From Escherichia coli (GTDB taxonomy: Bacteria > Pseudomonadota > Gammaproteobacteria > Enterobacterales > Enterobacteriaceae), in the NCBI RefSeq assembly GCF_024298765.1, contig NZ_CP101210.1: DNA of 64,000 nt; one strand, written 5' to 3'. Within the stretch, counting starts at the first letter, position 1. The number at the start of each line of letters is the position of its first letter. The position numbers and the translations under genes were made by a program. Shown in pieces: positions 17,225 through 20,217 of this stretch. The notes beneath the pieces were generated by a model that saw nothing but the letters and a program-made list of their open reading frames with translations, had not been told where the DNA came from and searched no databases.

Positions 17225-17277
17225 CGTTAAGAGTTTCTCTTCCTGAAACGTTTCGCGGAATGATACTAGTGTAGCCA

Positions 17278-17295
17278 GCCAATAAGGGAGAAAAA
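17278..17295 (-). promoter_or_regulatory. putative BaeR-binding box upstream of mdtA
   Basis: Minus-strand sequence TTTTTCTCCCTTATTGGC resembles the recalled BaeR consensus TTTTTCTCCATDATTGGC; about 55 bp upstream of the mdtA start. Confidence 0.5.
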
Positions 17296-17454
17296 TGGAG
17301 GAATTATGAAACACTGTCGGGAATCGTCTGAATGACGGGCACATTTGCGAGCACGCATCCAGTAATAACACAGGAAACTATTTTATCTACGCGTTAGCGA
17401 TAGACTGCTTGCATGGCGAAAGGAGGTAAGCCGCAGATTTCAGCCGGATGCTGA

Positions 17455-17600
17455 AACGGGAAAGCCCCTCCCGAGGAAGGGGCCTTAAATAAGGAAAGGG
17501 TCATGATGAAGCTACTCATCATCGTGGTGCTCTTAGTCATAAGCTTCCCCGCTTACTAAGACTACCAGGGCGGGGGAAACCCCGCTCTACCCTCACTCCT
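17455..17600 (-). ncRNA. putative Sib-type antisense sRNA (antitoxin of the ibs type I TA pair), copy 1; ends approximate
   Basis: Overlaps the small ibs ORF on the opposite strand; minus-strand hairpin GCCCCTTCCTCGGGAGGGGC (17464-17483) followed by a T-rich tract; part of a ~326-bp tandem repeat. Confidence 0.45.
17503..17559 (+). CDS. Ibs-family type I toxin, 18 aa hydrophobic peptide (MMKLLIIVVLLVISFPAY)
   Basis: Short ORF with RBS (aaggaaaggg) read directly from the sequence; absent from the ORF track; matches the Ibs toxin family. Confidence 0.7.
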   Translation: MMKLLIIVVLLVISFPAY

Positions 17601-17847
17601 GAAAGTATGCCTTCACGATAAGATTGTCAATCCGCAGGCTTTGTAGTCTGCGATCCTGCCAGCAAATATTCTTTGCGAGTCGTTACGCAATAATCACAGA
17701 GGAAACTATTTTATTCACGCGTTAGCGATAGACTGCATTCAGGGCGAAAGGAGGTAAGCCGATGATTTCAGCGGGACGCTGAAACGGGAAAGCCTCTCCC
17801 TGTACTGCACCCATTTTGTTGGACGATGAAATGGAATAGCCCCTAAT

Positions 17848-18369
17848 ATGTCAAAGCCAAAATACCCTTTTGAAAAGCGCCTTGAAGTCGTGAATCACTA
17901 CTTCACAACTGATGATGGTTACAGGATCATCTCGGCACGTTTTGGTGTCCCCCGAACCCAGGTCAGGACATGGGTTGCCCTCTATGAAAAACATGGAGAA
18001 AAAGGTTTAATTCCCAAACCTAAAGGCGTTAGTGCTGATCCAGAGTTGCGTATTAAGGTCGTGAAAGCTGTGATCGAGCAGCACATGTCCCTTAATCAGG
18101 CTGCTGCTCACTTTATGCTTGCTGGTAGTGGTTCTGTAGCCAGGTGGCTGAAGGTCTATGAAGAGCGCGGAGAAGCTGGTTTACGCGCGCTCAAGATTGG
18201 CACCAAAAGAAACATTGCAATATCAGTTGATCCAGAAAAAGCGGCATCAGCATTGGAGCTGTCAAAAGACCGACGCATTGAGGATCTTGAAAGGCAAGTT
18301 CGATTTCTTGAAACGCGGCTTGTGTATCTAAAAAAGCTGAAAGCCTTAGCTCATCCCACGAAAAAGTGA
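17848..18369 (+). CDS. insJ: IS150 OrfA (HTH transposase N-terminal protein, 173 aa)
   Basis: 173 aa with HTH; ends at slippery A AAA AAG (18359-18364), the -1 frameshift site to orfB. Confidence 0.85.
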   Translation: MSKPKYPFEKRLEVVNHYFTTDDGYRIISARFGVPRTQVRTWVALYEKHGEKGLIPKPKGVSADPELRIKVVKAVIEQHMSLNQAAAHFMLAGSGSVARWLKVYEERGEAGLRALKIGTKRNIAISVDPEKAASALELSKDRRIEDLERQVRFLETRLVYLKKLKALAHPTKK

Positions 18370-19217
18370 AAGTACTCAACGAGCTAAGGCAGTTTTATCC
18401 TCTTGATGAGCTTCTCAGGGCTGCGGAGATACCGCGCAGTACGTTTTATTACCATCTAAAGGCTCTCAGCAAGCCTGACAAGTATGCGGACGTTAAAAAG
18501 CGTATTGGTGAGATTTATCATGAGAATAGAGGCCGATACGGATACCGTAGGGTAACGCTGTCTCTTCATCGAGAAGGGAAACAGATTAACCATAAAGCTG
18601 TTCAGCGCCTGATGGGAATCCTCTCACTGAAGGCAGCGATTAAGGTCAAGCGATACCGCTCTTACAGAGGAGAGGTAGGGCAAACCGCCCCCAATGTTCT
18701 CCAAAGAGATTTCAAGGCTACGCGGCCAAACGAGAAGTGGGTTACCGATGTTACTGAATTTGCAGTCAATGGGCGCAAGCTGTATTTGTCTCCAGTAATA
18801 GATCTCTTCAACAACGAAGTTATTTCTTACAGCCTTTCGGAAAGACCAGTGATGAACATGGTCGAGAATATGCTCGATCAGGCATTCAAAAAGCTTAATC
18901 CTCACGAGCATCCTGTTCTGCACTCTGACCAGGGATGGCAGTATCGTATGAGAAGATATCAAAATATCCTTAAAGAACATGGTATTAAACAAAGCATGTC
19001 CAGAAAAGGCAATTGTCTGGATAATGCTGTGGTGGAGTGTTTCTTTGGAACCTTAAAGTCGGAGTGTTTTTATCTTGATGAGTTCAGTAATATAAGCGAG
19101 CTGAAGGATGCTGTTACGGAATATATTGAATACTACAACAGCAGAAGAATTAGCCTGAAATTAAAAGGTCTGACTCCAATTGAATATCGGAATCAGACCT
19201 ATATGCCTCGTGTTTAA
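18366..19217 (+). CDS. insK: IS150 OrfB (DDE transposase catalytic domain, 283 aa)
   Basis: 283 aa with DDE integrase-core motifs ([25 protein letters not shown]). Confidence 0.85.
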
Positions 19218-19277
19218 CTGTCCAACTTTTTGGGGTCAGTACACCCGGAGAAGAGGGCTTTTAATAAGGAAAGGGTT

Positions 19278-19337
19278 ATGATGAAGCACGTCATCATACT
19301 GGTGATACTCTTAGTGATTAGCTTCCAGGCTTACTAA
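19278..19337 (+). CDS. Ibs-family type I toxin, 19 aa (MMKHVIILVILLVISFQAY), copy 2
   Basis: Short ORF with RBS immediately past the IS150 right end; paralogue of the peptide at 17503. Confidence 0.65.
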   Translation: MMKHVIILVILLVISFQAY

Positions 19338-19557
19338 GAACACCAGGGGGAGGGGGAAACCTCTCCCTAACCCTCACTCCTGAAATTATGTCACTCCGCC
19401 CTTAGTGTCAATCGACGGCTCTCCGTTCTTGCGAGGCGAATAGCAAAATTTTCTGCGCCGCCGGGCCTAATTCTGAAAGTTTCTTCGTTTGTTCTTATTT
19501 CATTATTGCAGTCGGTATGATACCGGACCTCAATAATTCTCTAAGAAAGGATTTCTT

Positions 19558-20217
19558 ATGAGCGAACAAATCACGTTTGCCACCAGCGATTTTGCCAGTA
19601 ACCCGGAACCACGTTGCCCCTGCATTTTGCTGCTGGATGTTTCTGGCTCGATGAGCGGCAGACCTATTAATGAACTTAACGCCGGATTGGTGACCTTTCG
19701 TGATGAACTGCTTGCCGATCCGCTGGCTTTAAAAAGAGTGGAACTCGGCATTGTGACGTTCGGCCCGGTGCATGTGGAACAACCCTTTACCAGCGCCGCT
19801 AACTTTTTCCCGCCCATCCTGTTTGCCCAGGGGGATACGCCAATGGGGGCCGCCATTACCAAAGCCCTGGATATGGTTGAAGAGAGGAAACGTGAGTACC
19901 GCGCAAATGGTATTTCGTATTATCGCCCGTGGATTTTCCTGATCACCGATGGCGCTCCAACCGATGAGTGGCAGGCTGCCGCCAACAAAGTGTTTCAGGG
20001 GGAAGAAGATAAGAAGTTTGCCTTCTTTTCCATCGGTGTTCAGGGGGCGGATATGAAGACGCTGGCACAAATCAGCGTTCGTCAGCCTTTGCCTCTGCAA
20101 GGATTACAATTCCGTGAACTGTTTAGCTGGTTATCCAGTTCGCTGCGTTCGGTTTCCCGCTCCACGCCGGGAACGGAAGTTGTGCTGGAAGCGCCAAAAG
20201 GCTGGACGTCAGTGTGA
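19558..20217 (+). CDS. yegL: von Willebrand factor A (vWA) domain protein YegL (TerY-like)
   Basis: 219 aa; MIDAS motif DVSGSMSG (DxSxS) and later ITDGAPTD. Confidence 0.85.

Follow-up and report, generated by a model that had tools for sequence, protein, structure and literature searches.

An insertion that breaks an antitoxin gene and leaves the toxin open reading frame (ORF) intact raises an obvious question: why has selection not removed it? Such an arrangement is found in a 64,000-nucleotide stretch of the Escherichia coli contig NZ_CP101210.1 (hereafter the window), in which the insertion sequence (IS) IS150 interrupts sibA, the antisense RNA gene of a Sib/Ibs type I toxin–antitoxin module, beside the complete ORF of the toxin ibsA. 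A first-pass annotation of this DNA held that the arrangement should be counter-selected unless the toxin promoter had been separated as well. In the explanation that we consider probable as a whole, IS150 would have transposed into the intrinsic-terminator hairpin of sibA, at a site matching its own target preference. Because Sib and ibs lie on opposite strands and overlap fully, with the ibs 5′ untranslated region (UTR) antisense to the Sib terminator, this one event would have disrupted both partners: it would have removed the 3′ arm of the SibA terminator, and with it the last 12 nt of the RNA, and it would have split ibsA, whose promoter would now be separated by 1.44 kb of IS150 from the ribosome-binding site and ORF. 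SibA would still be transcribed from its intact promoter with all of its toxin-pairing sequence and would end at a hairpin inside IS150. Such an insertion would be close to neutral and therefore tolerated and inherited, and, since such hairpins carry a preferred IS150 target, further lineages and Sib units would be hit as well.

IS150 in the sibA terminator hairpin

The window holds two Sib/Ibs units, both full-length matches to the Rfam family SIB_RNA (RF00113) on the minus strand: unit 1 at 17488-17630 (142 bits) and unit 2 at 19263-19411 (149.5 bits), against a gathering score of 56. Comparison with K-12 MG1655 identifies unit 1 as ibsB/sibB and unit 2 as ibsA/sibA. In each, a hydrophobic ORF of 18-19 amino acids lies on the opposite strand, wholly within the Sib gene. 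IS150, a member of the IS150 group of the IS3 family, occupies 1,443 bp of unit 2 on the plus strand (17801 to 19243). Its left and right inverted repeats (IRL, TGTACTGCACCC..., and IRR, ...GGGGTCAGTACA) align as imperfect repeats of the TGTACTG.../...CAGTACA type. Its two ORFs overlap: orfA (173 amino acids, 17848-18369, plus strand) and orfB (283 amino acids, 18366-19217, plus strand), with the A6G slippery motif for −1 frameshifting at 18330 on the same strand. RefSeq accordingly labels the IS150 of genomes that carry this insertion with "programmed frameshift."

The boundaries of the element are exact. Unit 2 reads ...gaaagcctctccc / TGTACTGCACCC...GGGGTCAGTACA / cccggagaagagggctttt, and IS150 is flanked by a CCC target-site duplication at 17798-17800 on the left and 19244-19246 on the right, within the 3-4 bp expected of IS150. 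Joining the flanks through a single CCC leaves no difference from the sibA/ibsA sequence of K-12 MG1655, at least over window positions 17700 to 19366. The comparison with IS150-free sequence that the first-pass annotation had proposed thus bears out its view that IS150, with a 3-bp CCC duplication, sits in the unit-2 hairpin. Its further suggestion of a compensating change finds no counterpart in flanks that are identical to those of K-12. Nor is the insertion an assembly artifact, because IS150 sits in the same hairpin and in the same orientation in 74 of 5,426 complete RefSeq E. coli genomes.

The interrupted hairpin is supported as the SibA terminator. In MG1655, the annotated sibA RNA (2153311-2153454) is 144 nt long and extends 46 nt past the ibsA ATG, so that its 3′ end corresponds to window position 17786. 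Since this end falls 12 nt beyond the insertion point, the hairpin that IS150 breaks is the one at which K-12 SibA ends, and Han 2010 names a termination hairpin in the paralogous sibC. The first-pass annotation had assigned the hairpin to Sib termination on the minus strand, and both the K-12 annotation and Han 2010 agree with it. The native SibA 3′ end is predicted to fold as AAAGCC-C-UCUUC(UCCG)GGAGAGGCUUU followed by CCC. IS150 breaks this predicted fold after G24 of ...CUUCUCCGGG/AGAGGCUUUCCC, at the boundary between loop and 3′ arm. This is a small correction to the first-pass annotation, which placed the element in the loop of the hairpin; the break does not fall mid-loop.

IS150 divides sibA into two unequal parts. 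The larger, the 5′ 132 nt of the 144-nt RNA (19244..19375, minus strand, with +1 taken from the K-12 annotation), keeps all that is antisense to the Shine-Dalgarno sequence, start codon, and ORF of ibsA; of the terminator it retains only the 5′ arm and the loop. The smaller, at 17786..17800 on the minus strand as placed by the mapped K-12 annotation and the fold, comprises the last 12 nt of the RNA (the terminator 3′ arm and UUUCCC) together with the left CCC. Unit 2 has in this way lost the intact intrinsic terminator at its Sib 3′ end, whereas unit 1 keeps it. There, sibB (17459..17594, minus strand, from the Rfam match and K-12 comparison) is uninterrupted, and its terminator hairpin gcccctcccgaggaaggggc (17464-17483, minus strand) is free of IS150.

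What remains of SibA and ibsA

The SibA promoter region (19376..19411, minus strand) is intact. Positions 1-36 of the Rfam model align to it, TTGACA lies at 19411-19406, and the sequence is the same as in K-12 at least to 19394. Transcription from this promoter would run into the right end of IS150, where the SibA strand carries a terminator-like hairpin at 19157..19200. It consists of a 15-bp stem from 19200 to 19166 followed by UUUUAAUUU, lies 44-87 nt inside the element, and has a U-tract on the minus strand only. A scan of 17250-19560 returned it as the sole terminator-like site. Its minimum free energy is −24.6 kcal/mol (z = −6.3), and none of 200 shuffled sequences folds as well. This hairpin is most likely a surrogate terminator for truncated SibA, in which case the predicted product would be a chimeric SibA-IS150 RNA of ∼219 nt. 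Facing inward, the hairpin could also shield the element from outside transcription.

The shortened SibA keeps the working parts of the antitoxin, and its match to the Rfam model is full length. Sib RNAs are known in K-12 to repress ibs, whose products are toxic on expression (Han 2010). In the same study, a fusion of SibC(1-78) to the rrnB terminator still repressed the SibC target, and 23 nt (+46 to +68) sufficed. SibA-deficient K-12 cells were reported to be viable, and ibsA appeared to be recognized by noncognate Sib RNAs (Han 2010). The expectation that the arrangement is counter-selected is therefore not upheld: SibA keeps its promoter and pairing regions, a SibC(1-78) fusion represses, and K-12 is reported to live without SibA.

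The other half of the question concerns the toxin. The ibsA ORF (19278-19337, plus strand; 19 amino acids, MMKHVIILVILLVISFQAY) is complete, as had been noted from the start, and so is its Shine-Dalgarno sequence AAGGAAAGGG (19267-19276, plus strand). Carrier genomes annotate it as WP_010723109.1, and it is intact in all carriers examined. Its promoter can be placed by homology. The transcription starts of ibsC and ibsD were mapped by primer extension to 18 nt beyond the Sib 3′ end, and the full SibC–ibsC duplex leaves an 18-nt 5′ overhang of ibsC mRNA (Han 2010); because of this overhang, the ibs promoter must lie beyond the Sib 3′ end. From this start point onward, at a small CAGC...GCTG hairpin, all five K-12 units have a conserved core in common. 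By homology with ibsC and ibsD, the ibsA +1 would lie near 17768 and the promoter further left, within an upstream block (17672..17785, plus strand) that is identical to K-12 and would contain the presumed promoter together with the initial ∼18 nt of the ibsA 5′ UTR. The mapped ibsC and ibsD starts and the core common to the five units thereby lend weight, by homology, to the proviso of the first-pass annotation that the toxin promoter might be separated as well.

The ibsA ORF now stands 1.44 kb from this block and is no longer contiguous with its own 5′ UTR and the promoter placed by homology. Between IS150 and the ibsA ATG, 31-34 nt are left, which is too short to hold a promoter. A scan of the plus strand from 18521 to 19278 found no promoter-like site. 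A hybrid promoter, assembled jointly from the right end of IS150 and its flank, was also considered and rejected, as neither scan nor inspection yielded a −35/−10 pair with usable spacing. A reporter assay detected no promoter activity in the terminal 150 bp at either end of IS150 (PMC12095673). The ibsA ORF is thus probably promoterless, and either silent or weakly read through from IS150.

One could instead suppose that the insertion activates the toxin and that the cell holds it in check, with ibsA driven by IS150 read-through or an outward promoter and repressed by truncated SibA or by a cross-reacting Sib RNA. IS150 and ibsA do point the same way, and the plus strand lacks a T-run at the 19166-19200 hairpin, so read-through is possible. 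An outward-facing IS150 promoter is claimed, second-hand, in a passage of one paper that cites Schwartz 1988. The recognition of ibsA by noncognate Sib RNAs and the integrity of its ORF in carriers would likewise suit a toxin that is made and restrained. However, the promoter scan and the reporter assay both speak against such a drive, and insertions of the opposite orientation occur at the same site, from which it follows that survival does not depend on how IS150 is oriented. We regard toxin activation as improbable.

With the insertion read instead as disarming both partners, the apparent paradox disappears. In fully overlapping type I modules, the terminator of the antitoxin and the 5′ UTR of the toxin are the same DNA, and an insertion into this shared segment disarms both partners and need not be counter-selected. 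That the event is close to neutral would be in keeping with this layout. There is also a practical consequence: the annotation pipeline PGAP still calls ibsA intact in carriers, which affects the copy number and activity of Sib/Ibs modules as they appear in genome surveys. Finally, the predicted chimeric SibA-IS150 antisense RNA is testable, as is its reverse. Where IS150 lies in the minus orientation, transcription from the Sib promoter enters the element at its left end, in sense to the transposase genes, and could raise transposase expression; the resulting transcript would be a case of a host small-RNA promoter feeding a mobile element.

Repeated insertion at Sib terminator hairpins

The 5,426 complete genomes contain 6,088 IS150 copies in 2,864 genomes, and 5,298 of these copies are chromosomal. 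About 90 of the chromosomal copies lie within roughly 25 bp of a Sib terminator, in about 90 genomes. These represent at least 5 clean independent insertions at Sib terminator hairpins, and about 7-9 in total, in sibA, sibB-type, and sibD/E units and in both orientations. If insertion into a 150-bp target were uniform, with each IS150 copy counted as an event, the probability of at least 5 independent events would be 3e-10 to 1e-6. The case first noticed in this window is one of a series of repeated independent IS150 hits on Sib terminator hairpins.

The junctions, given here in ibs orientation, differ in position, orientation, and duplication. The window type, GCCTCTCCC/IS150(+)/CCCGGAGAAGAGGGC with the CCC duplication, has an identical left junction in 13 records. 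Strain PRO_A-1412 has the same site and the same CCC duplication with IS150 reversed. A third junction, GCCTCTCCCGGAGAA/IS150(+)/GAAGAGGGC with the duplication GAA, lies 6 bp to the right of the window site; it is present in ∼51 genomes, many of them named ST361, and a variant occurs in a four-unit array. In a sibB-type unit beside mdtA the junction is CCCGAGGA/IS150(+)/GGAAGGGGCC with the duplication GGA, and at the separate sibD/E locus beside yqiK (yqiK-hldE) it is CCCGAAGAA/IS150(+)/GAAGGGGCC with the duplication GAA. Four further junctions (v, vi, vii, and ix in our series), all in the minus orientation, fall on the 3′ arm, slightly past it, or at the ribosome-binding site of ibsA, and some of them lack a clean duplication.

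Could one ancient insertion, passed on vertically or by recombination, account for all of these? In its favor, the 13 CCC-junction records share the junction exactly, and the flanks of the window are identical to those of strain 201609. Within the CCC plus-orientation class, common descent may well hold. As a general account it is refuted: the duplications match their own units and differ among them (CCC, GAA, and GGA), both orientations occur, and paralogous units as well as the second locus at yqiK-hldE have been hit, so that the carriers cannot stem from a single event. We give this reading almost no credence. Gene conversion spreading one insertion among paralogous units was likewise rejected, as the duplication and the flank beside it are, in each case, those of the unit that was hit. 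The empty-site count is to be read with the caveat that paralogous units (∼86% identity) also pass its 80% coverage criterion, so that it cannot size other disruptions of sibA.

The IS150 copy in the window differs from the annotated K-12 IS150 at 10 of 1,443 nt (99.3% identity). The 10 positions are clustered within 18322-19100 and also distinguish it from the copies of all other CCC-junction carriers, and it is only 4-6 positions away from copies at ldr, hokA, and hokD. Such clustering would reflect either gene conversion between IS copies or a separate hit at the same site by another IS150 variant.

Some junctions lack a target duplication or combine mismatched hairpin halves, for example CCC/IS/GAAGAGGGC, and in one kind a sibB-type left arm is joined to a sibA-type right arm. 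These hybrids suggest small deletions beside the IS, or recombination between two IS150 copies that collapsed the ibs array. IS150 insertions without duplication and tied to deletions are documented in the literature.

The target motif and the causes of recurrence

The recurrence at Sib hairpins goes together with a strong target consensus for IS150, IRR followed by NNN-Y-G-R-G-G-C-Y, in which the specified bases come after the 3-4 bp duplication. We scanned metagenome contigs with an IS150-specific 38-mer and obtained 69 contigs with 41 distinct right flanks. GRGGC starts 4-6 nt beyond the IRR in 30 of the 41 flanks, as compared with 0-2 of 41 at eight control offset windows; the background expectation is 0.5% (binomial P∼1e-59). 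Pyrimidines (C or T) occupy positions 4 and 10 after the IRR, and G never occurs at position 4. The Sib junctions have the IRR flanks [GAA]GAGGGCT, [GGA]AGGGGCC, [GAA]GGGGCC, and [GGG]AGAGGCT. On the Sib strand, the SibA hairpin itself reads GGG-A-GAGGC-T, a good match that was used by both the window-type junction and its reversed counterpart in PRO_A-1412.

The motif extends beyond Sib. Five non-Sib IS150 copies were picked from the search output regardless of location, with the IRR flanks [AAG]TGAGGCT in yeeJ, [TTT]CAGGGCT in gltL, [CCGG]TGAGGCG between two ldr genes, [AAGTG]AGGCT at hokA/sokA, and [GGG]TGGGGCT at hokD. In all, 5 of 6 non-Sib E. coli sites fit the motif. Three of the five arbitrarily sampled copies lie at type I toxin–antitoxin loci (the ldr pair, hokA/sokA, and adjacent to hokD). 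De novo insertions fit as well: at the hokC sites of Finn 2017 (PMC5419217), the minus strand reads [ACC]C-GAGGC-C and the plus strand [CACT]C-GGGGC-T. The two positions, 16972 and 16989, lie in the two arms of a terminator-like hairpin, GCCTCG...CGGGGCTTTT, a geometry like that at Sib. Of the three REL606 coordinates taken from the table of that study, two, 1,464,xxx (ldr) and 4,381,583 (cycA), missed the named genes, and the hokC sites alone were usable.

These observations invite a broader proposal, to which we assign even weight for and against. IS150 would not be a random inserter; its motif would coincide with the G-rich arms of terminator hairpins of type I antisense RNAs (Sib, Sok, and the ldr region), which would make it a systematic disruptor of these modules. 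The hok/sok and ldr hotspots would then largely be products of mutational bias, with the overlapping layout guaranteeing that toxin and antitoxin are disarmed together. Insertions of IS150 at hok/sok and ldr were already known, and Sib/Ibs now joins the repeatedly hit loci. An explicit motif would also allow the hotspots of evolution experiments to be divided between mutational bias and selection.

Does IS150 read bases or shape? If structure directed the choice of target, IS150 would recognize hairpin or cruciform DNA as such, in the way that REP palindromes are recognized by IS1397 and ISKpn1. The insertions at Sib and SokC are indeed inside hairpins, IS3-family relatives target REP loops, and hairpin folds are also seen at the targets in yeeJ, gltL, ldr, and hokD, where the element entered immediately ahead of the descending arm. 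However, at many hok-like targets GAGGC forms the ascending arm, leaving the whole hairpin to one side of the insertion, and the signal is base-specific at fixed offsets from the IRR, with G excluded from position 4. The Sib hairpin is not a REP sequence; by inspection it is unlike the REP/PU consensus. IS1397 and ISKpn1, which also belong to the IS3 family, resemble IS150 in entering GC-rich extragenic palindromes. Their target is REP, whereas the IS150 signal is a short asymmetric sequence beside the IRR, and IS150 targets share this motif at fixed IRR offsets rather than a REP/PU palindrome loop. Recognition of structure seems to us a doubtful explanation. A further parallel is IS186, whose target GGGG(N6-7)CCCC (Lee 2016, PMC5009759) likewise places a GC-rich flank of the duplication under recognition, and whose palindromes allow both orientations; IS186 differs in belonging to the IS4 family and in its motif. 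That study included 2 IS150 events only and gave no IS150 logo.

Several points weigh against a target-matched, near-neutral insertion that disarms both partners. In the window, the motif adjoins the IRL and not the IRR, a minority orientation with respect to the consensus. YGRGGCY occurs roughly 2,000 times per genome; the motif alone therefore cannot single out Sib hairpins, and tolerance or selection must add to it. Loss of the native terminator could lower the stability of SibA or its binding of protein. As for ibsA, no convincing −10/−35 pair was found for it, the sequence upstream of the conserved core differs between the ibsA/B and the ibsC/D/E units, and an outward IS150 promoter is claimed second-hand.

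The abundance of the motif also gives room to adaptive inactivation, in which silencing a chromosomal type I toxin is beneficial and selection, not targeting, explains why Sib, hok, and ldr are hit again and again. Published accounts of the hok/sok and ldr insertions treat them as an adaptive shedding of redundant functions (Durrant, bioRxiv 10.1101/527788; Finn, PMC5419217), the motif is too frequent to explain the concentration alone, and the GAA junction of the ST361-rich group has spread with a successful clone. However, the motif holds equally inside yeeJ and gltL and in 30 of the 41 unrelated metagenomic flanks, which selection for toxin loss does not predict, and K-12 lacking SibA, or lacking both ibsA and sibA, has no reported phenotype (Han 2010). 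As the explanation of recurrence, we consider adaptive inactivation a tentative and rather less likely candidate. It is compatible with target preference, and the two are not exclusive.

Earlier reports of IS150 at type I loci can be set beside the sibA case on the same terms. In two studies, as at Sib, IS150 recurs at type I loci: one describes de novo insertions beside hok/sok and ldr in E. coli B (Finn 2017, PMC5419217), the other hotspots of insertion at hok/sok in a range of isolates (Durrant et al., bioRxiv 10.1101/527788). Both papers differ from our account in their adaptive reading, in giving no target motif, and in that Ibs/Sib is not among their loci. We found no paper that describes an IS150 target motif, and none that links IS150 with sibA or ibsA, in a literature search whose coverage was incomplete, so that this is weak evidence of novelty.

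The only IS150 of MG1655 (3720633-3722075) offers a second comparison. By annotation it has the mokA/hokA pseudogene on one side and a truncated sokA pseudogene on the other. As at sibA, IS150 here separates a type I toxin ORF from an antisense RNA gene; in the window, it is inside the antisense RNA gene, between the toxin ORF and its upstream control region. The K-12 case differs in that the toxin belongs to the Hok family rather than Ibs and the copy has no target duplication. Interruption of hokA/sokA by IS150 in K-12, and IS186 at hokC/hokE, are said to have been described by Pedersen and Gerdes in 1999. In other strains we find IS150 at the hokA, hokD, and ldr loci.

Target mimicry of the IS150 terminal repeats, as proposed for elements such as IS911 or IS30, was considered and set aside, as no similarity is apparent by eye. 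Among the matches listed, the terminal 24-30 nt of the IS150 right end also occur exactly in IS elements of Streptococcus, Alistipes, Rikenellaceae, and Clostridia. The interiors of these elements are dissimilar to IS150, and that scan was unusable for target analysis.

Measured against the standard Sib/Ibs module (Han 2010), unit 1 conforms, and unit 2 still has its Sib promoter, its pairing regions, and its ibs ORF. Unit 2 departs from it in lacking the Sib terminator and in having its ibs ORF cut off from the presumed promoter. The ibsB ORF of unit 1 lies at 17503-17559 on the plus strand. The sibB hairpin carries the IS150 target motif on both strands, yet it is empty in the window. The upstream block of unit 2 is an 84% direct repeat of the unit-1 block at 17344-17472. 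A small hairpin marks the presumed 5′ end of each toxin mRNA, TTTCAGCGGGACGCTGAAA for ibsA (17766-17784, plus strand) and TTTCAGCCGGATGCTGAAA for ibsB (17438-17456, plus strand). It is kept in all five K-12 units, and the unit-2 version has one G-C stem pair more than that of unit 1. The gene order of the segment is mdtA (minus strand, with its start near 17225), the two Sib/Ibs units, yegL, and pphC. Depending on the strain, the array between mdtA and yegL holds one to four ibs/sib units, and the window has two.

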